Shown: in pieces, positions 5,365-35,415 of the stretch
Layout: the number at the start of each line of letters is the position of its first letter
How positions within the stretch are numbered: the first letter of the stretch is position 1
Source of the DNA: Escherichia coli
Lineage (GTDB): Bacteria; Pseudomonadota; Gammaproteobacteria; Enterobacterales; Enterobacteriaceae
NCBI RefSeq assembly: GCF_050320075.1
Contig: NZ_CP190018.1
Reading direction: 5' to 3' (one strand)
DNA: 64,000 nt
Made by a program: the position numbers and the translations under genes
Notes under the pieces: generated by a model
What the model was told of the DNA's origin: nothing
Seen by the model: only the letters and a program-made list of their open reading frames with translations
Database searches by the model: none

Positions 5365-7940
5365 CGTCCACCTCCGGAGAACAGGCCACCATCACGCATC
5401 TGTGTCTGAATTTCATCACGGGCACCCTTGCGGGCCATGTCATACACCGCCTTCAGAGCAGCCGGACCTATCTGCCCGTTCGTGCCGTCGTTGTTAATCA
5501 CCACATGGTTATTCTGCTCAAACGTCCCGGACGCCTGCGACCGGCTGTCAGCCAGACTGCCCGGTGTACCGACATAACCACCGGTGGCATAGCCGCGCAT
5601 CAGCCGGTAGAGATTCCCCACGCCAATCCGGCTGGTTGCCTCCTTCGTGAAGACAAATTCACCACGGTGAACAATCCCCGCTGGCTCATATTTGCCGCCG
5701 GTTCCTGTGAATCCTCCGGTTGCAAAATGGAATTTCGCCGCAGCGGCCTGAATGGCTGTACCGCCTGACGCGGATGCGCCGCCACCAACAGCCCCGCCAA
5801 TGGCGCTGCCGATACTCCCGACAATCCCCACCATTGCCTGCTTAAGCAAAATTTCTGTCATCATGGACAGCACGGATCGGGTGAAGCTGCGCCAGTTCTG
5901 TTCACTGCCGGTCAGCATCGCCGCCATATTCTGTGCAATACCATCAAAGGTCTGCGTGGCTGCACTTTTAACCTGCGACATACTGTCCGTGGCGCTCTCT
6001 TCCCACTCACTCCAGCCGGACTTCAGGCCTGCCATCCAGTTCCCGCGAAGCTGGTCTTCAGCCGCCCAGGTCTTTTTCTGCTCTGACATGACGTTATTCA
6101 GCGCCAGCGGATTATCGCCATACTGTTCCTTCAGGCGCTGTTCCGTGGCTTCCCGTTCTGCCTGCCGGTCAGTCAGCCCCCGGCTTTTCGCATCAATGGC
6201 GGCCCGTTTTGCCCGTTGCTGCTGTGCGAATTTATCCGCCTGCTGCGCCAGCGCGTTCAGGCGCTCCTGATACGTAACCTTGTCGCCAAGTGCAGCCAGC
6301 TGGCGTTTGTACTCCAGCGTCTCATCTTTATGCGCCAGCAGGGATTTCTCCTGTGCAGACAGCTGGCGACGTTGCGCCGCCTCCTCCAGTACCGCGAACT
6401 GACTCTCCGCCTTCCACAAATCCCGGCGCTGCTGGCTGATTTTCTCATTTGCTCCGGCATGCTTCTCCAGCGTCCGGAGTTCTGCCTGAAGCGTCAGCAG
6501 GGCAGCATGAGCACTGTCTTCCTGACGATCGCCCGCAGACACCTTCACGCCGGACTGTTTCGGCTTTTTCAGCGTCGCTTCATAATCCTTTTTCGCCGCC
6601 GCCATCAGCGTGTTGTAATCCGCCTGCAGGATTTTCCCGTCTTTCAGTGCCTTGTTCAGTTCTTCCTGACGGGCGGTATATTTCTCCAGCGGCGTCTGCA
6701 GCCGTTCGTAAGCCTTCTGCGCCTCTTCGGTATATTTCAGCCGTGATGCCTCAGACTCGGCCCGATCTTTTGCTGCCATCTCACTGGCCTTTTCAAGATC
6801 TGCCTGCAACGTGGCGGCTGAAAGCCCAAGTCGCGCATTCTCTCTCTTCTCCCATGCCCCCCGGAGATTGGCAAGAAATGCTGACGTTTTACCGCGCCGG
6901 TGGCTTCGGCTCTGATACCACTGCCATTTTTTATCCGCTTCATCAAAAGCCTTTTCAGCTTTGGCGAGCATATCTGCAGAGGAGTCCGGGCGGCCAATAT
7001 CCAGCACCGCATCCCACATGGATTTGAATGCCTGTGCAGTCTTGTCTGCCCAGGTCTCCAGCGTACCCATGTTATCTTTCAGTTTACGGGTCTGGTCATC
7101 AAACCCTTTCGTTGCGGCCTCGTTCGCCGCCTGCAATGCCCCGGCCCCATCGCCGGAACGCTGCAACTGAGCAACATACGCAATCTGCTCCGCCGTCACG
7201 TTATGGAACTGGCGCGCCATCGCCGTCAGCCCCGACGTCGGGTCAGTGGTCAGCTTCCCGAAGGCTTCAGCGACCTTGTCCACCTCCACACCGGATGCAG
7301 AGGAGAAACGCGCCACACTCTGGCTGATTGCCTCAAACTGCTCACCACCACGCACACCGGCATTCACCAGCGCCGTCAGTGACTCGCTGGTCTGGTTAAA
7401 CGTCAGCCCTGCCGCCTGCCCGGATCTGGACAGGGCCAGCATACGATCTGCCGTCAGTCCCGCCTGATTACCGGAAAGGACCAGCGTTTTATTGAAATTG
7501 GACAGGGTTGAGTCACCCTGATACCAGGCATACGCCAGCGCACCGGTCGCCACCGCCAGCGAAGTGATACCAACCATCGGCAGGGTGATCGCACCGGCAA
7601 GCCCCCTGAACATGGGGATCATCCCGCCGAAGGAGTCCTTCACCTGACCACCCTGTTGCAGCAGGATGAGCCACGGATTCTGCCCCCCTGCAAGCTGCGT
7701 GGCCACGTCGGTGAACTGCGCAGGCAGCATACGCATGGCAGCTTTATACTGCCCGACGGAAATCCCCGCTTTCTGTGCAGCCAGCGCCTGCCGGTTTATT
7801 GACTGTTCAACGACTGCCGCTGTTTTTTTCGCATCACTTTCCGTACCGGAAAAATGACGCCTGACTCTGGCCATCTGCTCGTCAAATCTGGCCGCATCCA
7901 GACTTAAATCAACGACCAGATCGCCTACCGGTTCAGCCAT
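5361..7940 (-). CDS. H: Tail tape measure protein H
   Basis: 859-aa ORF MAEPVGDLVVDLSLDAARFDEQMARVRRHF... with coiled-coil middle and Gly-rich C-terminus, as in lambda gpH. Confidence 0.93.
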   Translation of the reverse strand: MAEPVGDLVVDLSLDAARFDEQMARVRRHFSGTESDAKKTAAVVEQSINRQALAAQKAGISVGQYKAAMRMLPAQFTDVATQLAGGQNPWLILLQQGGQVKDSFGGMIPMFRGLAGAITLPMVGITSLAVATGALAYAWYQGDSTLSNFNKTLVLSGNQAGLTADRMLALSRSGQAAGLTFNQTSESLTALVNAGVRGGEQFEAISQSVARFSSASGVEVDKVAEAFGKLTTDPTSGLTAMARQFHNVTAEQIAYVAQLQRSGDGAGALQAANEAATKGFDDQTRKLKDNMGTLETWADKTAQAFKSMWDAVLDIGRPDSSADMLAKAEKAFDEADKKWQWYQSRSHRRGKTSAFLANLRGAWEKRENARLGLSAATLQADLEKASEMAAKDRAESEASRLKYTEEAQKAYERLQTPLEKYTARQEELNKALKDGKILQADYNTLMAAAKKDYEATLKKPKQSGVKVSAGDRQEDSAHAALLTLQAELRTLEKHAGANEKISQQRRDLWKAESQFAVLEEAAQRRQLSAQEKSLLAHKDETLEYKRQLAALGDKVTYQERLNALAQQADKFAQQQRAKRAAIDAKSRGLTDRQAEREATEQRLKEQYGDNPLALNNVMSEQKKTWAAEDQLRGNWMAGLKSGWSEWEESATDSMSQVKSAATQTFDGIAQNMAAMLTGSEQNWRSFTRSVLSMMTEILLKQAMVGIVGSIGSAIGGAVGGGASASGGTAIQAAAAKFHFATGGFTGTGGKYEPAGIVHRGEFVFTKEATSRIGVGNLYRLMRGYATGGYVGTPGSLADSRSQASGTFEQNNHVVINNDGTNGQIGPAALKAVYDMARKGARDEIQTQMRDGGLFSGGGR

Positions 7941-18669: not shown

Positions 18670-18903
18670 ATGTCAACGAAGAACAGAACCCGCAGAACAA
18701 CAACCCGCAACATCCGCTTTCCTAACCAAATGATTGAACAAATTAACATCGCTCTTGTTCAAAAAGGGTCCGGGAATTTCTCAGCCTGGGTCATTGAAGC
18801 CTGCCGCCGGAGACTGTGCTCAGAAAAAAGAGTTTCGCCTGAAGCAAACAAAGAAAAGAGTGACATTACTGAATTGCTCAGAAAACAGGTCAGACCAGAT
18901 TGA
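18670..18903 (+). CDS. YlcI-like small prophage protein
   Basis: 77-aa ORF MSTKNRTRRTTTRNIRFPNQMIEQINIALVQKGSGNFSAWVIEACRRRL... resembles the DLP12 ylcI product. Confidence 0.6.
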   Translation: MSTKNRTRRTTTRNIRFPNQMIEQINIALVQKGSGNFSAWVIEACRRRLCSEKRVSPEANKEKSDITELLRKQVRPD

Positions 18904-18960
18904 AGCAATTTAGATAATCGTGCAGACTACGCCCCCTCATATCACATGGAAGGTACTACA

Positions 18961-19371
18961 ATGGCTCAGATTGCCATTTTTAAACAAATATTCGATAAAG
19001 TGCGAAATAATTTAAACTATCACTGGTTTTATTCTGAACTAAAACGTCACAATGTCTCACATTACATTTACTATTTAGCCACAGAGAATATTCATCTTGT
19101 TCTTGAAAACGATAATACGGTTTTAATAAAAGGACAGGGTAAGGTTGTAAATGTAAGATTTTCAAAAAATAAATGCCTTATAGAAGCCACCTTAAAAGGA
19201 TTCAAATCAGGAGAGTTATCATTTTACGAATACAGGAAAAATCTTGCTACAGCAGGGGTTTTCAGATGGATTACAAATATCCACGAAAACAAAAGGTATT
19301 ACTATACCTTTGATAATTCATTACTCTTTACTGAGAACATTCAGAACACTACACAAATATTTCCGCACTAA
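18961..19371 (+). CDS. YbcV-like prophage protein (DUF1398 family)
   Basis: [58 protein letters not shown]... resembles DLP12 YbcV; low GC. Confidence 0.65.
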
Positions 19372-19678: not shown

Positions 19679-20155
19679 TTATCTGAGGCATTGCTCTCGA
19701 ATGTATAGCTGTGCCCCTTCAAGTTGTTTTTGCATTATTATCAGTCGCGCTCTGAGGGTGAAATAATCCCGTTCAGCGGTGTCTGCCAATCGGGGGGAGG
19801 CTGCATTATCCACGCCGGAGGCGGTGGTGGCTTCACGCACTGACTGACAGACTGCTTTGATGTGCAACCGACGACGACCAGCGGCAACATCATCACGCAG
19901 AGCATCATTTTCAGCTTTCGCATCAGCTAACTCCTTCGTGTATTTTGCATCGAGCGCAGCAACATCACGCTGACGCATCTGCATGTCAGTAATTGCCGCG
20001 TTCGCCAGCTTCAGTTCTCTGGCATTTTTGTCGCGCTGGGCTTTGTAGGTAATGGCGTTATCACGGTAATGATTAACAGCCCATGACAGGCAGACGATGA
20101 TGCAGATAACCAGAGCGGAGATAATCGCGGTTACTCTGTTCATTGCTGACCCCAC
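19679..20155 (-). CDS. Rz: Spanin inner-membrane subunit Rz (i-spanin); likely true start near 20143
   Basis: (...)[59 protein letters not shown]... matches lambda Rz. Confidence 0.9.
19741..19923 (-). CDS. Rz1: Spanin outer-membrane lipoprotein Rz1 (o-spanin), embedded in Rz in the +1 frame
   Basis: 60-aa [63 protein letters not shown]: lipobox LVVVGC and proline-rich segment as in lambda Rz1. Confidence 0.88.
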
Positions 20156-20637
20156 AAACAGATTTCACGCTCAATCTCACGACGAGTCATGAGACCTTTC
20201 CATTGCTTACCGCCAGCATATGTCCAGCGACGTAACTGATCACATGCGCCTTTGATATCGCCCTGGTTTATTTTGCGAAGAAGCGTCGATGTTCTGAAAT
20301 TGCCAGCACCCACGTTGTAAACGAATGAGTAAAGAGCGCCGCGCGTTGTTTCCGGTATATCGACTTTGATGTACGGGTTAATTTGTCTGGCGACAGTGGC
20401 AAGGTCTTTATTCAAGAGTGCTTTGCATTCTGCTTTGGTATACGTTTTACCGAGCATGATGTCTTTTCCTGTATGCCCGTGACATACAGTCCATACACCA
20501 ACAATATCTTTGTATGGTATGTAGCTGACACCCTCCAGACCATCGTTACCACCTGGACCAGTGATTAACACTGATGCTATAGCAATTGCTCCGCCACCAA
20601 TAGCAGCAGCAACGGCTTTTCGTAATGATGGAGGCAT
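20140..20637 (-). CDS. R: SAR endolysin (T4-lysozyme-family muramidase with N-terminal signal-arrest-release domain), phage-21 R type
   Basis: 165-aa [60 protein letters not shown]...: Gly/Ala-rich weakly hydrophobic N-terminus followed by a lysozyme core; not the lambda R transglycosylase. Confidence 0.88.
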
Positions 20638-20852
20638 TATTCACCTCTCGCAGCCTTGCGCTTATCTTCTTTAATCTTGAAATAAAGGTTTGTCAGGTAC
20701 GTCAGCAGGCCAAATACCAAGCTACCCAGCACACCTATTGCTGCCCACTGTGAGGGCGTGACTTTATCGAGCAGCTGTAAAAACCAGTAGCCAGCACTGC
20801 CTGCGGAGGTGCCGTAGGCAATGCCCGTTGTTAACTTATCCATGGATTTCAT
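20637..20852 (-). CDS. S: Pinholin S (class II, two TMDs, dual-start motif MKSM), phage-21 S type
   Basis: 71-aa [74 protein letters not shown] directly upstream of the SAR endolysin. Confidence 0.88.
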
Positions 20853-21045
20853 AGCCTCACCTCCGCAAATAACGGATGGTGTACACGGTTCGGAACGAAG
20901 AGGAAAGGTATAGAAGTTACATTAGCGTAAGGCTTGAACATCTATTCAAAAAGAAAAACGCCAGCGATTATTCTGGCGTAGCTGAAAGCATCATACAATT
21001 ATCAAATACGAAAATTACAAAATCATTAAAACGCATCACGTTACA

Positions 21046-21627
21046 TCATGTCTTTTCTAAAAAAAATCTTGATGAATATTGATGGGGAGGAACACCAAAA
21101 TATCTTCTGAAAACACTTACAAAATATGACGTGTTTTCATAACCGCATATCTCAGCAACTTTTCCAACAGAATATAAATTGTAGCTTAATAACCTTTCCG
21201 CCATCACCATTCGCTCTTCAAGAATTAACTTACTAAATGATAAGCCTTCGTGCTTTAATTTTCTTTTTAACAGACTTTCACTCAGATACAGTCTTGAAGA
21301 TATATCACAAAGTCTCCATGCTGCAGATATATCCGTGTGAATAATAGCCTTAACTTTACTTCCTAAACTATTAAGACATCCAAATAAAAAACTTTGCACT
21401 ATTTTCTCTGAAGATAAGATAGCAAGACATGCAAGTGATATTTGATTTCTAACAAAATCCACAGTTCTGCCATCACAATTCAAGCATGCAATCAAGTTCT
21501 TTAACAATGAAAAATCTTCACATTCCACCATCAAGTATGCCGGATAAAACCTTCTTACAGAAAAAGGTGAGAGTGTGTTGCTTTTAAAGAAATCATTAAC
21601 TGTTTTCTCTTCAACATCTACGATCAT
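21046..21627 (-). CDS. AraC-family transcriptional regulator (prophage cargo)
   Basis: 193-aa ORF with C-terminal AraC-type HTH region (...LSYNLYSVGKVAEICGYENTSYFVSVFRRYFGVPPHQY); ~30% GC. Confidence 0.75.
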   Translation of the reverse strand: MIVDVEEKTVNDFFKSNTLSPFSVRRFYPAYLMVECEDFSLLKNLIACLNCDGRTVDFVRNQISLACLAILSSEKIVQSFLFGCLNSLGSKVKAIIHTDISAAWRLCDISSRLYLSESLLKRKLKHEGLSFSKLILEERMVMAERLLSYNLYSVGKVAEICGYENTSYFVSVFRRYFGVPPHQYSSRFFLEKT

Positions 21628-22121
21628 TGCATGATCTATATTTGATGAAAAAAATCTTTTAAATTTTAATCAATGAGAACAGCACTTCCTTTTTTAAATA
21701 AAATATCTTCTTTACCAATTCGGACATCAAACGAGTTCAACACCAAAATGATAGAACATATGTATGGCATATTATCCACCTGATATCATTGGGGTTACAC
21801 CAAGTAAGTATAGGTGGAAAATCAATATTCGCCAGTTCAACAATAAGGAAAATCTCATTGCATCACAAGTATAAAATTATGTATTTAACTCACAAAGACA
21901 AATTATTAAACCAATCTGTTATATTATATATAGCTGCGTGGAATCATAATATTATATATTTTGACTGGCATGTTTACCAACTTTAAGTTGCATCTCAATG
22001 GTTTCTTCAGCGTAAACAGAGTTTTTATACAAACTGACACTCTGGGTATCATAGTGTAGTTTTTACGATTGTAAATATCCTGCATGCAGGAACTCATCCT
22101 TTTGGATGATATCGCATACAA

Positions 22122-23081
22122 TTAATTTACCATCAGTCTTAGAGCCAGTTCGTCCGGATAGGGATCGAAGTAATTCTGTGTAAGCAAGTAATCATTAGGA
22201 TACTCACCCAGATAATGCTTCAGCAGAGTCAACGGCGCAAGAAGAGGTAATGTGCCAGAACGATAGTTAAGTATAACCTCGCTCAACTCTTTACGCTGGC
22301 GTGTACTTAAGTAGTTACTAAAATACCCCTGTATATGCATCATCACATTCGTGTGATTTTTACGTGATGCAGGTTTTCTGAGAATCGCCATCAGCTTATC
22401 ACGATACACCTCAAAGTATGATTCAAGGTCCGCCCACTCGTGTATTGCAGCCACAAATGGTCCCATATCTTTATAGCCTGCCTGACTATGCGCCAACAAC
22501 TGAAGCTTATAACGACTATGAAAAGCTAATAACTCTCTTCTTGATAATTTCTCCTTGTAAAGGTGATTGAGCTCATGCAAAGCAAAAACTCTTTCAACAA
22601 AATTCTCACGAAGCACTGGATCATGTAATCGCCCATCCTCTTCAACCGGTAGCCAGGAAAACTTTTCCATCAAAGTGCTCGTAAATAGTCCCACTCCATC
22701 TTTACGACCTCGATTACCATTTTCATCATAGACACGCACGCGCTCCATGCCACAGCTGGGAGATTTAGCACAAACCACAAACCCCGATACATCCTTTAAT
22801 TTGTCCATATAAGAACGACTAAACTCTGTCATTCTCTCTGTCACATCCTCATTCTGGTCGTGGCTGAAACACATCCGTATATTTCCTTGCGTCGAGCGCA
22901 CAAGACGTAGAGCAGGACGCGGAACTGGCAGCCCTATAGCCATTTCCGGACATACTGGTCTGAATGTTACCCATTCCACTAATTTGTCCATTAAAAAGTC
23001 AGCTCTTTTGTGACCACCATCAAAACGAACAGCAGAACCGGCCAGACAACCGCTGATTCCAATCACAGGTTTTTTTATCAT
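22122..23081 (-). CDS. DUF523/DUF1722 (YbgA-like) family protein, Cys-rich N-terminal half (prophage cargo)
   Basis: 319-aa ORF MIKKPVIGISGCLAGSAVRFDGGHKRADFLMDKLVEWVTFRPVCPEMAIGLPVPRPALRL... resembles YbgA-type DUF523-DUF1722 proteins. Confidence 0.7.
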   Translation of the reverse strand: MIKKPVIGISGCLAGSAVRFDGGHKRADFLMDKLVEWVTFRPVCPEMAIGLPVPRPALRLVRSTQGNIRMCFSHDQNEDVTERMTEFSRSYMDKLKDVSGFVVCAKSPSCGMERVRVYDENGNRGRKDGVGLFTSTLMEKFSWLPVEEDGRLHDPVLRENFVERVFALHELNHLYKEKLSRRELLAFHSRYKLQLLAHSQAGYKDMGPFVAAIHEWADLESYFEVYRDKLMAILRKPASRKNHTNVMMHIQGYFSNYLSTRQRKELSEVILNYRSGTLPLLAPLTLLKHYLGEYPNDYLLTQNYFDPYPDELALRLMVN

Positions 23082-23273
23082 ATCCTCCCCCTTGACTAAT
23101 TCATTAACACATAAACTGTGTAGTGCACGGAATAAATTGCCTTTCTGGCGTCATCACTGACAATTTTTCTGTTATGGACTATTCCTAATATAGTATGAAA
23201 GTTCTTTAAGTGATCGGTCGTAATCATCTATCTTTCATACTTACTCTCAACTATCAAAAGTACAGGATTTATT

Positions 23274-23798
23274 ATGAAGTTATGGCCTGTGTTGACTGGC
23301 ATTGCACTCTCTTTCACTCTTATAGCATGTAAGGCCCCGACACCACCTAAAGGTGTGCAGCCGATTACAAATTTTGACGCCAACCGCTACCTCGGAAAGT
23401 GGTATGAAATAGCTCGCCTCGAGAACCGGTTCGAACGTGGTCTGGAACAGGTCAGCGCTACTTATGGAAAACGGAACGACGGAGGGATTCGTGTACTTAA
23501 CCGTGGATACGATCCAACGAAAAATAAATGGAGCGAGAGCGAAGGTAAAGCATACTTTACTGGAGATACTAAAACTGCAGCGTTGAAGGTTTCGTTTTTT
23601 GGCCCCTTCTATGGTGGCTATAATGTAATCAAACTGGATGATGAGTATAAGTATGCTCTTGTCAGTGGTCCGAACAGAGAATACCTATGGATTCTGGCAA
23701 GGACCCCAACTATTCCAGATAAAGTAAAAGCAGACTATGTGCGAACCGCTCAAAAGTTGGGATTCAATGTCAATGAATTATTATGGGTTAAACAATAA
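23274..23798 (+). CDS. Bacterial lipocalin (Blc-like outer-membrane lipoprotein) paralog (prophage cargo)
   Basis: 174-aa ORF with lipobox LIAC and NFDANRYLGKWYEIARLENRFERGLEQVSATYG...KVSFFGPFYGGYNVIKLDDEYKYALVSGPNREYLWILARTPT, closely resembling E. coli Blc. Confidence 0.85.
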   Translation: MKLWPVLTGIALSFTLIACKAPTPPKGVQPITNFDANRYLGKWYEIARLENRFERGLEQVSATYGKRNDGGIRVLNRGYDPTKNKWSESEGKAYFTGDTKTAALKVSFFGPFYGGYNVIKLDDEYKYALVSGPNREYLWILARTPTIPDKVKADYVRTAQKLGFNVNELLWVKQ

Positions 23799-23835
23799 AA
23801 TCCCTACCCGAAATAATACTTATTAGAATAAATAT

Positions 23836-23859
23836 CCTCCGGCATAGCCGGAGGTTTTT
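23836..23859 (+). terminator. Rho-independent terminator downstream of the lipocalin gene
   Basis: CCTCCGGCATAGCCGGAGG hairpin followed by TTTTT. Confidence 0.7.
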
Positions 23860-23865
23860 CAAATG

Positions 23866-24575
23866 CGCCTATAAGGCTCTCTTACCAGCCGCGCCCTAAC
23901 AGGCGCACACGATCTGACATTTGCATCCAACTTCGTTACTTACGGCCCGTAAACGGGCTGCCCGGATAGGGAATCGATAACTGCTCTCCCATTTTATCCT
24001 CTTCAAGCTGGTGCTTTATGTAGTCCTGTATCTTCGCCGTGTTCTTACCCACCGTATCGACATAGTACCCTCGGCACCAGAACTCCCTGTTTCTGTATTT
24101 GAATTTCAAATCCCCAAACTGCTCGTAAAGCATCAGACTGCTTTTCCCTTTCAGATATCCCATAAAGCCGGATACGCTCATTTTGGGTGGGATTTCCACA
24201 AGCATATGGATATGATCTGCGCAGCACTCTGCTTCCAGAATCCGTACGCTTTTCCACTCACACAGCTTTCTCAAAATACTGCCTATCGCCCTACGCTTCT
24301 CTCCGTAAAACGCCAGTCTTCGGTATTTCGGCGCAAAAACTATGTGATATTTACAGTTCCAGCGGGTGTGCACTAAGCTCTTTTCGTCCCCCATTGGGAC
24401 CCCCTTTTGATTTCTTGTTTGACACTTGCAGTTGCCAGACCGCAAGGTGTTTTAACAAATCAAAAGGGGTTTTAATAACTGGCTCAAAGCTGAAAGCTTT
24501 CCGGAACCCCCAGCCTAGCTGGGGGTTTTCTGTGCACAAAAAAACCAGCCTTTGGGGAGGCTGGCTAAATCAGGA
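23866..24575 (-). mobile_element. IS200 insertion sequence (boundaries approximate)
   Basis: Contains the IS200 TnpA gene plus end hairpins (GGCCCGTAAACGGGC near 23945; CCCCCAGCCTAGCTGGGGG and CCAGCCTTTGGGGAGGCTGG near 24500..24570). Confidence 0.8.
23936..24394 (-). CDS. tnpA: IS200/IS605-family Y1 (HUH) transposase TnpA
   Basis: MGDEKSLVHTRWNCKYHIVFAPKYRRLAFYGEKRRAIGSILRKLCEWKSVRILEAECCADHIHMLVEIPP... matches IS200 TnpA (152 aa). Confidence 0.93.
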   Translation of the reverse strand: MGDEKSLVHTRWNCKYHIVFAPKYRRLAFYGEKRRAIGSILRKLCEWKSVRILEAECCADHIHMLVEIPPKMSVSGFMGYLKGKSSLMLYEQFGDLKFKYRNREFWCRGYYVDTVGKNTAKIQDYIKHQLEEDKMGEQLSIPYPGSPFTGRK

Positions 24576-24664
24576 AACAAGCTGTTATATGATAATAACT
24601 ACGTTGCGATTCCAACATTTAAAATGTTAGACTAATGAGAATCAGACAGCAACTTTTCCTTTAA

Positions 24665-25057
24665 TTATTTCGAACAATCAGCATCCATCTCCAATCGGAG
24701 ATCCAACACCATCAGCATACCCTCCACTACGCCCTCAGCTTTCTGGAGCATCCTGCCAACCCAACAATCAGATCGCCCATGCTTACGTGCAAGCGCCATA
24801 AAAGTCATGCCGCCGACATAATAGTCCACCAATAAATCATGCAAATCGCTGTTGTTCTTTTTCAGACGGGCCATGCACCCGCAAATGATCATCGCGTCAT
24901 CGTCACAACATTGTGGGCGAGATTTTACTTTTGAAGGAATTAATCCCTTAAAACCGGCGGCAATGGACGACCAGGTCACATCTTCATGATTATTAGCCGC
25001 CCACGCTCCCCAACGCTCAAGAACCATCTGAATATCACGCATCAACTTACTCCACAA
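24665..25057 (-). CDS. Late-gene antiterminator Q (phage-82 / DLP12 QuuD type); possible start at the MRDIQM Met
   Basis: ORF (MWSKL)[62 protein letters not shown]... resembles QuuD. Confidence 0.8.
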
Positions 25058-25264
25058 AACTCAGACCAGAACGCCAATTACAAGCAAAAATCAACAAAAC
25101 AGTATTAGTTGATTGTTATCTCTGACTTCATACTCCTGCTCCTGTCAGGGTTTTGGCGTAATTCTTCAGTATTCGGTAATCGGTCAAAACAGAACCAGGG
25201 AAACGATATAAGCGCAGGCGCATCCAGCGGTGGCGAAGAAGTTCTGCCATATAAAACTCAAACA

Positions 25265-25627
25265 TCATTCATCTCCCTGTTCAGTGATGGTCAGTTCCAG
25301 CTTTCCACCTTTGACAACCGGCATCTTCACAACGCGGTAATCAACGACCTGAGCATCATCCAACCAGAAACCTGCTTTGGTGAGTGCGTCAAAAGCGGCC
25401 TTTTGTAGATTATCCAGGTCACGGCGACGGCGATCCGGCATGTGACACTCAATGCGGATTTTCACAGGCATAGCCAGGCCGATATCCAGCATTGCGTTTT
25501 TAATGATTCGGGCGACGTTTTCGCGGTATGCCTGCCCCTCTGCGCTGATGTGCGTGCGCCCGCGATTATGGCGGTAATAGCGATTATTGCTCGGCGGCCA
25601 GGGTAATGTGATATTGTAGGTATTCAC
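25265..25627 (-). CDS. rusA: Holliday-junction resolvase RusA
   Basis: 120-aa [57 protein letters not shown]... matches DLP12 RusA. Confidence 0.92.
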
Positions 25628-27905: not shown

Positions 27906-29432
27906 TCAAAAATAAACCTCACCATCAACCATATATTTGAGAGTACTTATCGCCTGCTGGGCGGATATTATTTTCATTAAAGGATAGTGTTTAAAAACAA
28001 TGCCATTCATAAAATAGATATCACAGGTTTTATTATCTGTATTGATTATGATTTTTTCGAATGTTTTATAGGCAAGTGTACGACATAGCTCTCGCCCATT
28101 TTTACTGGTTAAGTCAATAGCATGAAAATCACCAAGTGAACTCACCGCTTTACTCTTCAAAGTTTTTAATGATACAGAAGCCCTTCGTAATTCCTTATCT
28201 AATACTCTGATTTTTTCTGCTATAGCGGTAACTTCAGGCGCAACAGATAATGCAGCAATTAAATTATTAATTTTCATCTGGAGCTCAATAATTTTCAACT
28301 CTAAAGTTTCATTAGCATCTTTCTTGTTTTCAACTGGTTGGATTTTACTACAATTAAAAAGCAACTCATTAATGATATTATAATCAACCAAATCTCTCTT
28401 TATTGATGGCCTGTCACATCGATGCAGTCTTCTCATCGGACAAACATAATAGCCATGCAAACTTCCAGATACCGCATGAACAATCATGGTATTACCACAA
28501 GCCTCGCACTTCATAACTGTTCGAAGTAGATTTATCAACATAGGATTTTTGCTACTATTGCTAATACCAAAAGGTGCCAACCGAATTTCCTGCACAGCGT
28601 AAAACAAATCATCTGATATGACTCTGGGATAATAGCCAGCGATTTCACTTATTCCTTTACCTCTTGCACGATATGAAGGTACGCATATACCTATCAGAGC
28701 TTTATTCGCTAATAATTTTTCAATTACAGAAGGTCCCCATGCACTTTCTTTTCCTGAGAAATTCTTTACAGCATGATCATTTAAATACTTGGCTATTGCA
28801 TTCAATGAGCGCCTTTCCATCCTGAGTTTAAAAATTAGCTCAATAGTTTTCACCCTGTCGGGGTCTGGAACAAAAGCCGTTCTTTTGTCATCCAATGAGA
28901 GCCATCTCGGACAAGACGCCGTCATAATCGTGCCTGACTCCAGTGCATCCTGCCGTTTTTTCTTCCATGATAATTTAACCCGACTTGACTTTATCTCGCT
29001 TTCTTCATTTGCCCTTTGTGCTATAAGTATGGCTTTTATTAATGAATATGGCTCATTCAATGAGTCAATATTATAGACTGTATTATCGCAAAGAGTTATA
29101 ACATCAATACCGTGATTCAAAATCAATTTCAGACGCTCAATCGCTTCACCGACTTTTTCTCTTGAAAGTCTGTCCAGACTTTCAACTAACAATGTAGTCC
29201 CTGGCAATATATAACCATGTTCTATAGCATCTAAAAATTCCGAAAAAGCTCCTGATTGTGCATGCTTTCCATTGAATGCGCTTAACCCCAAATCTTCATA
29301 CGTTACGGTATCAAGGTAATAATCACTATTTACCTTTAGCCATTCAGTAATAAGCCTTCTCTGGCGGTTTAATGAATCACCAGACATCTGACCTGGTGAT
29401 GAAAATCGCATATATGCTATGGCTTTTTTCAT
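27906..29432 (-). CDS. Large serine recombinase (resolvase/invertase catalytic domain plus recombinase and Cys-rich zinc-ribbon-like domains), DLP12 YbcK type
   Basis: 508-aa ORF MKKAIAYMRFSSPGQMSGDSLNRQRRLITEWL... (catalytic Ser in RFSSPGQ) with downstream CEACGN...CPMRRLHRCDRP cysteine cluster; low GC. Confidence 0.85.
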   Translation of the reverse strand: MKKAIAYMRFSSPGQMSGDSLNRQRRLITEWLKVNSDYYLDTVTYEDLGLSAFNGKHAQSGAFSEFLDAIEHGYILPGTTLLVESLDRLSREKVGEAIERLKLILNHGIDVITLCDNTVYNIDSLNEPYSLIKAILIAQRANEESEIKSSRVKLSWKKKRQDALESGTIMTASCPRWLSLDDKRTAFVPDPDRVKTIELIFKLRMERRSLNAIAKYLNDHAVKNFSGKESAWGPSVIEKLLANKALIGICVPSYRARGKGISEIAGYYPRVISDDLFYAVQEIRLAPFGISNSSKNPMLINLLRTVMKCEACGNTMIVHAVSGSLHGYYVCPMRRLHRCDRPSIKRDLVDYNIINELLFNCSKIQPVENKKDANETLELKIIELQMKINNLIAALSVAPEVTAIAEKIRVLDKELRRASVSLKTLKSKAVSSLGDFHAIDLTSKNGRELCRTLAYKTFEKIIINTDNKTCDIYFMNGIVFKHYPLMKIISAQQAISTLKYMVDGEVYF

Positions 29433-33807: not shown

Positions 33808-35415
33808 ATGGATATGTCAAAAAAAATTTTTGAATTCAAAAATTACCCAATAGTCTTTATTGGCTCAGGCATTTCAAAAAGATATTTAGAGAACTACCCA
33901 ACGTGGGAAGAGCTATTAAACGAGTATTGGAAAATAACAAATCCCACAAATGATTTCTATAGTTATCTTTTAACAATAAAAGAATCACATAAAAATAACA
34001 GTGATAATGATATCGATCATAAGATTTATACAGAGGCAGCAAGTAAAATTGAAAATGATTACAATCTATTGTTTAGGACTGGCAAATTAAAATTAAATGG
34101 ACTAGATGCCAAGAGGGTTTTTAGTGAAGATATTTCACCATTTAAATACGCCATATGCCAAAGATTTTCTAATAACACAATCAGAAAGGATGTAAATCTT
34201 GATGAATTAGCATCATTTAAAACATTAATAAAAAAGGCCAAGATAATCATCACTACAAATTATGATGCTTTCATAGAAAATTTACTTCAAGAGCAAAATG
34301 TAACTCCAAAACTCTATATTGGAAATAATGGTTTTTTCGAAGATACTATTGGCTGGAGTGAGTTATACAAAATACATGGTGATATAAAGGATCCACACTC
34401 AATAATCATAAATAAAGATGATTACGAAAAATATGACAACAAATCTATACTCATTAGTGCCAAGATACTATCTAACATGATTAAAAATCCAATAGTTTTT
34501 CTTGGATATTCTTTAACTGACAGGAATGTAAAGAAACTTCTTTCTGATTTTTCCTCACAACTACCTAGAGAAGATGGTCGAAAATCAGCTGAAAGAATAA
34601 TTTTGATTGAATATAAAGAGAATGAACAGGAAGTAGTACCAAAACAGATTACCGATCAACAGCTACAAATTACATATACATCTGTTAAAACAGATAACTA
34701 TAAACAGATCTATGATGAGATCAGTGCTGTTGATGAAGGGCTCTCACCTTATGATGTTTTAAGGTATCAAAGAGCCATTAAAACACTTATCATTAATGAG
34801 GGTGAAAAAGGGCACTTAGATACTCTATTGGTTTCACCTTCTGACTTAGACAGACTTGAAGAAAGTGTTAAACAAGGAAAAAATTTAGTTGTTGCTCTAG
34901 GCGATAAAAAGTATGTATTCACACAAGTTAAAGAAATAAATTATCTTGAAGACTACTTATTTAATAAAAATGAAATATCTAATAAATTAGCTATAGATTT
35001 CATATTAGGTTCAGTAAACTCATTACAACTTCCATTTTCAAAAACTATAACCTCATGTAATTTGAAAGAGTTAAGTTTGCCAGCTAAATATGTGTTAAAA
35101 CTAAATCAACGCATTGAACGCCACGGAAAACTAGACGACTTGCTCAATAAAATCACCTTAGATAAAATCAATGCAAATAAAATTTACACCAACATCAAAG
35201 ATATAAAGGATGCAAAGTTCAAAAAGTACAAAGAATTGTCTATAGTCATTAAGAACATAAAAAATATCCCCAAAGAGGAGATTGAAGATTATGTTAAAAA
35301 AGAAGCGTTTGTTCAATTCAAGGCATGCGACGTTGACAATTTAAAAACCCAGTATAGGAAACTATTTCTTGCCTACGACTTGTTGATTCATGGAAATGTT
35401 GAAAAGATAAATTAA
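33808..35415 (+). CDS. SIR2-like (sirtuin-family, SIR2_2-type) domain protein with uncharacterised C-terminal half; candidate single-gene anti-phage defence protein in the rexAB-equivalent position
   Basis: 535-aa ORF, about 28-30% GC; motifs FIGSGISK (res 17-24), IIITTNYD (N151), YKIHGD (H190), IVFLGYSLTD (229-238) with Asn-His spacing of 39 as in defence-associated SIR2 domains; directly downstream and co-oriented with the repressor. Confidence 0.7.
   Translation: MDMSKKIFEFKNYPIVFIGSGISKRYLENYPTWEELLNEYWKITNPTNDFYSYLLTIKESHKNNSDNDIDHKIYTEAASKIENDYNLLFRTGKLKLNGLDAKRVFSEDISPFKYAICQRFSNNTIRKDVNLDELASFKTLIKKAKIIITTNYDAFIENLLQEQNVTPKLYIGNNGFFEDTIGWSELYKIHGDIKDPHSIIINKDDYEKYDNKSILISAKILSNMIKNPIVFLGYSLTDRNVKKLLSDFSSQLPREDGRKSAERIILIEYKENEQEVVPKQITDQQLQITYTSVKTDNYKQIYDEISAVDEGLSPYDVLRYQRAIKTLIINEGEKGHLDTLLVSPSDLDRLEESVKQGKNLVVALGDKKYVFTQVKEINYLEDYLFNKNEISNKLAIDFILGSVNSLQLPFSKTITSCNLKELSLPAKYVLKLNQRIERHGKLDDLLNKITLDKINANKIYTNIKDIKDAKFKKYKELSIVIKNIKNIPKEEIEDYVKKEAFVQFKACDVDNLKTQYRKLFLAYDLLIHGNVEKIN

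Follow-up and report, generated by a model that had tools for sequence, protein, structure and literature searches.

Proteins in which a TudS/DUF523 domain is fused to a DUF1722 domain have been named RudS and characterized as [4Fe-4S] enzymes that strip 4-thiouridine (s4U) from tRNA (Jamontas et al., Nucleic Acids Research 2024, PMC11417400). One of the proteins cloned and assayed in that study, RudS_vir, is gp66 of Escherichia phage 1H12 (NC_049947), and every RudS tested, RudS_vir included, lowered the s4U content of tRNA in E. coli; the context, prevalence and role of rudS in phages were not analysed there (PMC11417400). The lipocalin gene blc has been listed among the morons of lambdas from the infant gut, being present in more than 50% of the 19 studied, and membrane proteins dominate the morons of these phages (Mathieu et al. 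2020, PMC6969025), and the prophage-borne AraC-like regulators PatE, PsrA and PsrB of enterohaemorrhagic E. coli (EHEC) have roles in acid resistance and type III secretion (reviewed in PMC10877973). Here we describe a locus in which a rudS gene, a blc-like gene and the remains of an AraC-like regulator gene are found side by side, at positions 20856-23865 of a 64,000-nucleotide stretch of Escherichia coli DNA (contig NZ_CP190018.1; hereinafter, the window), between the genes for the late antiterminator Q and the holin of a lambda/DLP12-like prophage.

We consider these genes to comprise a conserved lambdoid moron cassette that likely acts in lysogenic conversion, by lowering the s4U content of tRNA and blunting the growth arrest caused by ultraviolet A (UVA), and we put the probability of this overall explanation at roughly 0.6; the physiology proposed for the cassette, namely, the drop in s4U and the altered UVA response, is more tentative, with slightly less than an even chance of being correct. 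The finding is real and largely already described, the components and the cassette itself being present in published phage genomes. The preliminary description of this DNA called the combination of the three genes a module that it did not recognise, a view that does not stand given that RudS_vir has been assayed (PMC11417400) and blc is a listed lambda moron (PMC6969025). What is added here, apart from the prevalence of the cassette, is that the three genes are conserved as a single block, which evolves under purifying selection and has a conserved terminator; that a second RudS lineage has been taken up by Gifsy-like phages beside dinI, an SOS modulator; and that the regulator is the dispensable member, often lost via a slippage tract of eight T residues (T8). 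In the literature examined, we found neither the prevalence, nor the block structure and selection, nor the capture next to dinI, nor the decay at the T tract, and no mention of the RefSeq protein accessions of the cassette.

The 319-aa protein encoded at 22122-23081 (minus strand), previously noted as a putative Fe-S enzyme, is very probably RudS, that is, a [4Fe-4S] tRNA 4-thiouridine desulfidase. Its two halves match the Pfam domains 2-thiour_desulf (PF04463, residues 7-149, 1.6e-39) and DUF1722 (PF08349, residues 192-309, 4.6e-40), and it aligns with RudS_vir without gaps at 93% identity. The [4Fe-4S] ligands Cys12, Cys44 and Cys110 are all kept, together with Glu46, Arg55, Ser107 and Ser109; these positions follow Table 1 and the mutagenesis of PMC11417400, the catalytic set being the equivalents of Glu51, Arg60, Ser111 and Ser113 of RudS_KT. 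The NCBIfam model for E. coli YbgA (169 aa) matches the C-terminal half of the window protein only, and E. coli is stated to have only the DUF1722 protein YbgA (PMC11417400). The counterpart in phage 1H12 has the same length of 319 aa, the same three cysteines and Glu/Arg/Ser/Ser set, and the same flanks, with blc upstream, an AraC-like gene downstream, and Q and the holin around them; it differs from the window copy in belonging to allele group C rather than A (dS about 0.3), and the window has, in addition, a broken regulator and an upstream insertion of the IS200 type. RudS_ST (ORF319, STM1389), encoded in the Salmonella pathogenicity island 2 region, shares the two-domain architecture and the positions of the cysteines. 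Among the RudS encoded in enterobacterial chromosomes, the closest relatives are 70-76% identical to the window protein, but their neighbours are MerR/LitR regulators or, in Citrobacter, the gene cluster described below, none of which accompanies the phage copy (43% G+C).

The prophage extends from about position 1 to 41.5 kb of the window, and its late genes are on the minus strand. Along the direction of late transcription, Q is followed by an IS200-family transposase, the lipocalin open reading frame (ORF) on the opposite strand, the 319-aa ORF, a 193-aa ORF with a helix-turn-helix (HTH) domain, the holin, endolysin and Rz genes, and the terminase genes Nu1 and A. The coordinates of the three cargo ORFs (21046-21627, minus; 22122-23081, minus; 23274-23798, plus) and their family matches, which are well outside what chance would give, bear out the earlier report of three AT-rich genes of non-phage type in the slot between Q and the holin: the G+C content is 38.4% over 20856-23865 compared to 49.9% for the whole window, and within the interval it goes down to 29-44% from about 50%, with minima of approximately 29-33% at the AraC-like gene and in intergenic DNA (32% for the AraC-like gene, 43% for rudS and 44% for blc). 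Foreign composition (38% versus 50% G+C) is thus combined with patchy presence at the same slot, given that about 80% of E. coli genomes lack the cassette, as expected of a moron.

The co-occurrence of the three genes outside the window, which the preliminary description had proposed as a check, is extensive. A scan of IMG/VR with RudS recovered 42 loci, of which 36 viral contigs show, as far as they extend, the same order of Q, blc in the antisense orientation, rudS, the AraC-like gene and the holin gene. By RudS identity, the alleles fall into group A, to which the window belongs (99-100%), group B (97%) and group C, that of 1H12 (93%). Of 5,426 complete E. coli genomes, 994 contain the 3-kb interval with a coverage of at least 80%, and rudS is covered to the same extent in 1,063; the cassette is also present in 12 phage genomes, including 1H12, the Lambda_ev series and IdasGreatGrand. 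An exact 41-nt pattern taken from the most conserved intergenic stretch had no match in a set of 100,044 species that included one representative genome per species. In the commensal E. coli HS (locus L053), the three genes are intact inside a decayed Qin-like remnant, and in E. coli BL21 (locus L056, NZ_CP053601.1, 1554651-1562797) a Qin-like remnant still includes Q and blc of the phage, the latter intact, and a stump of rudS that IS3 has cut to 147 nt; rudS is occasionally struck by insertion sequence (IS) elements.

All three cassette genes are under purifying selection. Between alleles, the ratio of nonsynonymous to synonymous divergence (dN/dS) is 0.10-0.22 for rudS, 0.06-0.19 for blc and 0.21-0.28 for the intact alleles of the regulator, to be compared with 0.04-0.11 for Q and 0.05-0.09 for the holin. 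The bordering genes, Q on the upstream side (24665-25042, minus; 125 aa from the ATG) and the class II, EssD-type holin on the downstream side (20637-20852, minus), are labelled 'antiterminator Q family protein' and 'phage lysis protein EssD', respectively, by the NCBI Prokaryotic Genome Annotation Pipeline (PGAP) at an E. coli locus that is 100% identical to that of the window, the source of all PGAP labels used here. Where they adjoin the cassette in viral contigs, the holin is 92-100% and Q is 97-100% conserved (the latter in more than 30 contigs), and these Q and holin types are combined with differing rusA/nin and lysozyme modules. The constant association with the same Q and holin types, along with the frequent decay of the regulator and the occasional IS hits in rudS, could be taken to mean that the cassette is neutral, hitch-hiking DNA, retained solely through linkage to the Q and holin modules. 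Neutrality, however, predicts dN/dS near 1, whereas the values for rudS and blc (0.06-0.22 together, over dS of up to 0.3) are as low as those for Q; moreover, the control region and the terminator of the cassette are conserved, the cassette is kept in cryptic remnants, and RudS has been captured independently by another phage lineage. We regard neutral retention as the least probable of the explanations considered.

The gene at 23274-23798 (plus strand) encodes a 174-aa Blc-like outer-membrane lipocalin lipoprotein, as had been reported. The protein scores 316 bits against the NCBIfam Blc subfamily model (cut-off, 267 bits), and it matches phrog_2809 and the solved structure of E. coli Blc (3MBT) at 3.5e-69 with 64% identity over the mature chain; the translation starts with a lipoprotein signal, MKLWPVLTGIALSFTLIAC, with the lipobox LIAC, in which Cys19 is followed by Lys. 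Chromosomal Blc of E. coli (PDB 1QWD, 2ACO, 3MBT) is a lipobox lipoprotein as well; the window protein is distinguished as a phage-borne xenologue, not a recent paralogue, that is paired divergently with rudS. The preliminary description also credited the lipocalin with a terminator of its own, but alignment with IS-free relatives assigns the hairpin at 23836-23854, together with its T-run, to the end of the IS200 element. A search of the literature for a link between lipocalins and LitR or light regulons yielded nothing relevant.

The AraC-like gene in the window (21041-21770, minus), as delineated by alignment to 1H12 gp67 and to an intact group A allele and by its HTH domains, is inactivated. 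Codon 35 is changed from TAC to TAA (21668-21666); seven codons after this stop, the T8 run at codons 41-43 is shortened to T7 (21654-21648), causing a frameshift; and an additional 1-nt deletion is located near the 3' end. The identical locus is tagged 'frameshifted' by PGAP. The 193-aa ORF (21046-21627), which begins at the internal Met49 with no evident Shine-Dalgarno sequence, is the 3' part of this pseudogene and not a short regulator. Thus, the family assignment made in the preliminary description stands, the ORF retaining the C-terminal double helix-turn-helix (HTH_18, 1.2e-14; HTH_AraC, 3.5e-07), but the short gene does not: intact alleles encode 237-243 aa (243 aa in gp67 of 1H12), and the full-length reading frame of about 237-247 aa expected of such regulators is missing in the window. 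Of the 26 viral contigs with a complete copy, 22 have an intact regulator, and the four broken copies are all altered in the same T-run (T7 or T6). Shortening of the run to T7 or T6 is seen in many independent copies, namely, in the viral contigs L010, L015, L016 and L018, in E. coli PT109 and in roughly 270-290 complete genomes. Within allele group A, the 5' segment of the gene in complete E. coli genomes gives 243 exact matches to the intact T8 form and 49 to the double lesion of the window, and the T7 frameshift alone accounts for roughly 270-290 genomes as estimated from ranked matches; the 5' segment of allele B is found in about 328 genomes, and the copies of this allele were intact wherever checked (HS and eight IMG/VR copies). 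All these counts are surely inflated by clonal sampling. We interpret the T8 run as either a hot spot for slippage or a switch for phase variation; errors in the sequencing of homopolymers could contribute to the variation of the run but cannot explain the additional TAA in the window.

Judged by its closest matches, the intact regulator (phrog_1450) is related to, but distinct from, YdeO, GadX and PatE. The best NCBIfam matches are YdeO, HilD and GadX, all far below the cut-offs (105 bits versus 348 for YdeO), and the protein is 53% identical to ECs_0287 of E. coli Sakai, the sole AraC-type gene of prophage Sp1 and, by position rather than by sequence, probably PatE. With PatE, PsrA and PsrB of EHEC and AppY of DLP12, it has in common the location on a prophage, the length of about 245 aa, the C-terminal double HTH and the AT-rich gene; the differences are that it occupies the slot between Q and the holin instead of the prophage end and that, in the window, it carries the stop and the frameshift. 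A further potential element of control is a predicted hairpin in the 5' leader (21757-21835, minus; minimum free energy -20.1 kcal/mol, z = -2.7) that pairs the Shine-Dalgarno sequence and the AUG of the gene and may act as a translational switch, perhaps, a thermosensor. Its arms are conserved and its loop is variable across alleles A, B and C, with no compensatory change; the leader of the probable PatE gene of Sakai likewise sequesters the Shine-Dalgarno sequence, but the arms are not homologous, and so this was not counted as covariation support.

These relationships raise the possibility that regulation or virulence is the main function of the cassette, with a PatE-like AraC protein that reprogrammes acid resistance (gadE, hdeA) as well as, in pathogens, the genes of type III secretion and with rudS and blc as passengers or targets. 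The similarity to the probable PatE and to YdeO, GadX and HilD, the precedent of PatE, PsrA and PsrB, the low dN/dS of the intact alleles, and the conservation of a promoter-like site and of the leader hairpin are all compatible with such a role. Nevertheless, the regulator of the window is a pseudogene, in group A the intact copies are matched by large numbers of T7 and double-lesion copies, and rudS and blc remain intact where the regulator is broken, so we view this explanation as unlikely.

The flanks of the three genes contain several conserved elements that could control their expression. A candidate late promoter pR' (TTGCTG, 17-nt spacer, TAACAT; 24624-24652, minus), recognized by consensus match only, is located 13 nt downstream of the Q stop codon and is conserved in IS-free relatives. 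The pR' leader would end at tR', a hairpin with a T-run (AGCCAGCCTCCCCAAAGGCTGGTTTTTTT; 24535-24566, hairpin 24566-24543, minus) that was identified by a terminator scan and that, by alignment with 1H12 and with the loci L008 and L026, is native phage DNA and not part of IS200. In the IS-free relatives, the tR' hairpin is approached by blc from one side and by the pR' leader from the other, and only about 160 nt, holding the candidate pR' and tR', separate the stop codons of Q and blc. In the window, a 709-bp IS200-family insertion that is absent from these relatives (about 23829-24537, minus; tnpA at 23936-24396; NCBIfam transpos_IS200, 6.6e-42) sits exactly after the tR' T-run and separates pR'/tR' from all of the late genes. 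The majority of E. coli matches to the interval end at query position 2977, which is the IS200 boundary within a few ambiguous bases, and the last ~35 nt of 20856-23865 belong to this element. Among the matches listed, only three E. coli genomes have the IS200 insertion in common, one of them with ISCro1 inside the IS200. In an Rfam scan of 20000-25500, the leader RNA of IS200 (STnc490, the IS200 5' untranslated region RNA; 146 bits at 24404-24527) was the sole match that reached the gathering score, two weaker, sub-threshold matches being taken as chance.

Within the cassette, blc and rudS diverge from a 192-nt region of 34% G+C (23082-23273). When alleles A, B and C are aligned, this region varies less than do the synonymous sites in the genes on either side; it harbors the strong Shine-Dalgarno sequence of rudS (GGGGGAGG) and a putative promoter-like site found by scanning (23250-23223, minus). 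Just downstream of the rudS stop codon lies a sigma-70-like site (TTTACA, 16-nt spacer, TATGAT; 22048-22075, minus; 10 of 12 consensus matches), a candidate promoter of the AraC-like gene, which is kept in alleles A, B and C whereas the DNA that follows it has indels. Between the cargo and the holin gene, an intrinsic terminator (ACGCCAGAATAATCGCTGGCG then TTTTTCTTTTT; 20958-20979, minus), detected by a terminator scan, is near-invariant in the three alleles, with a single loop substitution in allele B, and the flanks contain indels; this hairpin with its T-run (20979-20958) provides the cassette with a terminator of its own, another feature of morons. No LexA-box-like site (CTG-N10-CAG, with up to 6-7 mismatches) was found in 20600-25100 or elsewhere in the window, which led us to reject direct SOS control of the cassette, and the window contains no tRNA genes.

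Other lambdoid phages also have cargo at the position between Q and the holin, namely, stxAB in Shiga toxin phages, nmpC in DLP12 and cspB-cspF in Qin of E. coli K-12. These genes share with the present cassette the slot downstream of pR'/tR', the read-through by Q-modified polymerase and the foreign composition; the cassette differs in content, in the antisense orientation of blc and in the conserved terminator before the holin. The expectation of the preliminary description that the cargo is read from the late promoter fits the direction of two of the genes, in that rudS and the AraC-like gene are co-directional with late transcription, and fails for blc, which is antisense to it.

RudS genes are not limited to this cassette. 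Six further viral contigs from IMG/VR (L041-L046) encode a RudS that is only 73% identical to that of the window. These contigs represent Gifsy-like lambdoid phages of Citrobacter and Salmonella, and their rudS gene stands by itself within the nin region, immediately upstream of a DinI homologue (in L041, 6001-6960 for rudS and 7157-7423 for the DinI homologue). In Citrobacter and Salmonella, proteins annotated as 'YbgA family' share 98-100% identity with these RudS, and the comparison indicates that RudS entered lambdoid phages at least twice, independently. The chromosomal RudS that is closest to that of the window, with 76% identity, comes from Citrobacter, in which it is the last gene of a conserved cluster (L049-L052) encoding a short-chain dehydrogenase/reductase, a flavin adenine dinucleotide-dependent amine oxidase, DUF1365, a cyclopropane-fatty-acid-synthase-like protein, DUF2878, a 175-aa protein with no significant Pfam match, DUF3833 and RudS. 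We take this cluster to resemble the lipid-modification clusters of photo-oxidative stress. It contains neither blc nor an AraC gene, and two of its products of approximately 175 aa show no BLASTP similarity to Blc, one of them having only a marginal chalcone-isomerase-like Pfam match; a chromosomal origin of the blc-rudS pair was rejected, no ancestral linkage having been found beside this closest chromosomal RudS.

Under the explanation that we favor, the cassette, as part of the late operon downstream of pR'/tR' and ahead of the holin, would provide RudS that turns s4U8/9 of mature tRNA back to uridine, an activity known from the 93%-identical phage orthologue, and the prophage would supply an activity that is missing in the host species, E. 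coli itself having only the YbgA half. In the lysogen, low-level transcription of rudS and the regulator would probably start at promoters of their own, with the conserved terminator halting these transcripts before the holin so that expression would proceed without lysis; after induction, Q-modified polymerase from pR' would read strongly through both genes. A lower s4U content would result in fewer s4U8-C13 cross-links under UVA, hence less uncharged tRNA and less guanosine tetraphosphate (ppGpp), and a shorter growth arrest. The lysogen would gain in sunlight, and translation, including phage protein synthesis, would be kept running when UV damage induces the prophage. With RudS_KT overexpressed, growth was delayed by UVA for about 60 min instead of about 105 min, thiI mutants escape the synergy of UVA and ultraviolet C (UVC), and it has been proposed that RudS could sustain protein synthesis for repair (PMC11417400); for the connection of s4U with near-UV and SOS, we rely on secondary citations. 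The blc gene, transcribed in the opposite direction from the shared control region, would add an outer-membrane lipocalin lipoprotein with a possible role in envelope maintenance because its chromosomal homologue binds lysophospholipids. The PatE/YdeO-type regulator, dead in the window, might, by analogy, cross-talk with H-NS-silenced acid-resistance genes in other carriers. A fitness or virulence role of the cassette, as suggested in the preliminary description, is likewise an inference.

Several observations weigh against this explanation. Within the set of RudS enzymes studied, RudS_vir showed the weakest tRNA desulfidation despite good protein levels, and, in the rescue of a uracil auxotroph, the shortest lag on free 4-thiouracil (PMC11417400); because of this combination, tRNA may not be the only substrate of RudS_vir. 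The same two properties would be accounted for if RudS were a salvage or detoxification enzyme of lytic growth that, like stand-alone TudS, acts on free thiolated pyrimidines (4-thiouracil, 4-thio-uridine monophosphate) from RNA turnover, and the co-directionality of rudS with the late operon and its strong Shine-Dalgarno sequence fit this proposal as well. However, thiouracils are held not to be primary substrates of any RudS, and tRNA s4U was lowered by every enzyme of the set (PMC11417400); furthermore, the tRNA-binding DUF1722 domain is retained under purifying selection where a stand-alone TudS would suffice, and we consider a salvage function quite unlikely. Other difficulties concern the setting in which RudS is proposed to act. 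The UVA phenotype was obtained with overexpressed RudS_KT of Pseudomonas, not with the phage enzyme at its native level, and RudS genes have been placed in light-responsive operons (PMC11417400), neighbours of which kind the phage cassette does not have. The Citrobacter gene likewise sits inside a conserved seven-gene cluster, and the phage cassette has neither such neighbours nor a LexA box. UVA exposure is low in the gut, the habitat of most carriers. The promoter scan was not enriched over shuffled sequences, the promoters named above are consensus matches only, and no expression data on the cassette were found for either the lysogen or induction. Finally, roughly one carrier in three has an inactivated regulator, so the three genes do not appear to be an obligatory functional unit.

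An anti-phage or superinfection-exclusion function, in which the lipocalin masks a receptor in the manner of Cor and Llp or tRNA de-modification blocks an incoming phage, is another conceivable role, in line with the suggestion of a defence cassette in the preliminary description. The prophage slot often houses exclusion or defence genes, Blc is a surface-proximal lipoprotein, and, as pointed out above, membrane proteins are prominent among lambda morons. Nevertheless, none of the three proteins has a PADLOC match (E <= 0.01), the PHROG families of all three are annotated as 'unknown function', and a separate candidate defence gene is present elsewhere in the prophage. To our knowledge, no defence acts through s4U. 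We therefore deem an exclusion function very unlikely. The separate candidate is a 535-aa SIR2-family ORF that adjoins the cI-like repressor gene (33808-35415, plus) and matches the PADLOC candidate model PDC-S25 over its full length (6e-236) as well as ThsA-type SIR2/STALD models; its position at the immunity region and these matches suggest that it is likely a prophage-encoded anti-phage gene.

The same prophage contains additional low-G+C cargo. A large, YbcK-like serine recombinase of 508 aa is encoded at 27906-29432 (minus; 32-40% G+C), and, by homology to the identical locus L002, the multidrug efflux gene emrE is located at about 29.5-30.3 kb, between the replication and nin genes, so that this region is another low-G+C cargo island. 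Between Rz and cos, the position of bor in lambda, a region of 33-43% G+C (18670-19371, plus) includes a YlcI/YnfO-family gene and the gene for a 141-aa DUF1398 protein, for which the PHROG 413 label 'head protein' seems doubtful.

With respect to the host, the distribution of the cassette restricts the published statement that RudS is missing from E. coli to strains of the K-12 type: each of the 1,063 rudS-positive genomes carries a full-length copy on a lambdoid prophage or a remnant thereof. E. coli strains are, accordingly, non-uniform for work on s4U and UVA, and BL21, with its stump of rudS, is the parent of BL21(DE3), the host used in the RudS study. The question that results is why the genomes of temperate phages should include a gene for erasing a UV-sensing mark on tRNA. 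Conceivably, although we find this extended scenario doubtful, the s4U eraser makes translation in the host independent of near-UV damage, and a prophage that sunlight-type DNA damage has induced would still make its proteins; blc, rudS and a T8-switchable regulator would then comprise a co-selected module for survival outside the host, under UVA, envelope stress and acid, and rudS would make about one fifth of E. coli strains differ from K-12 in tRNA s4U and in the UVA and stringent response.

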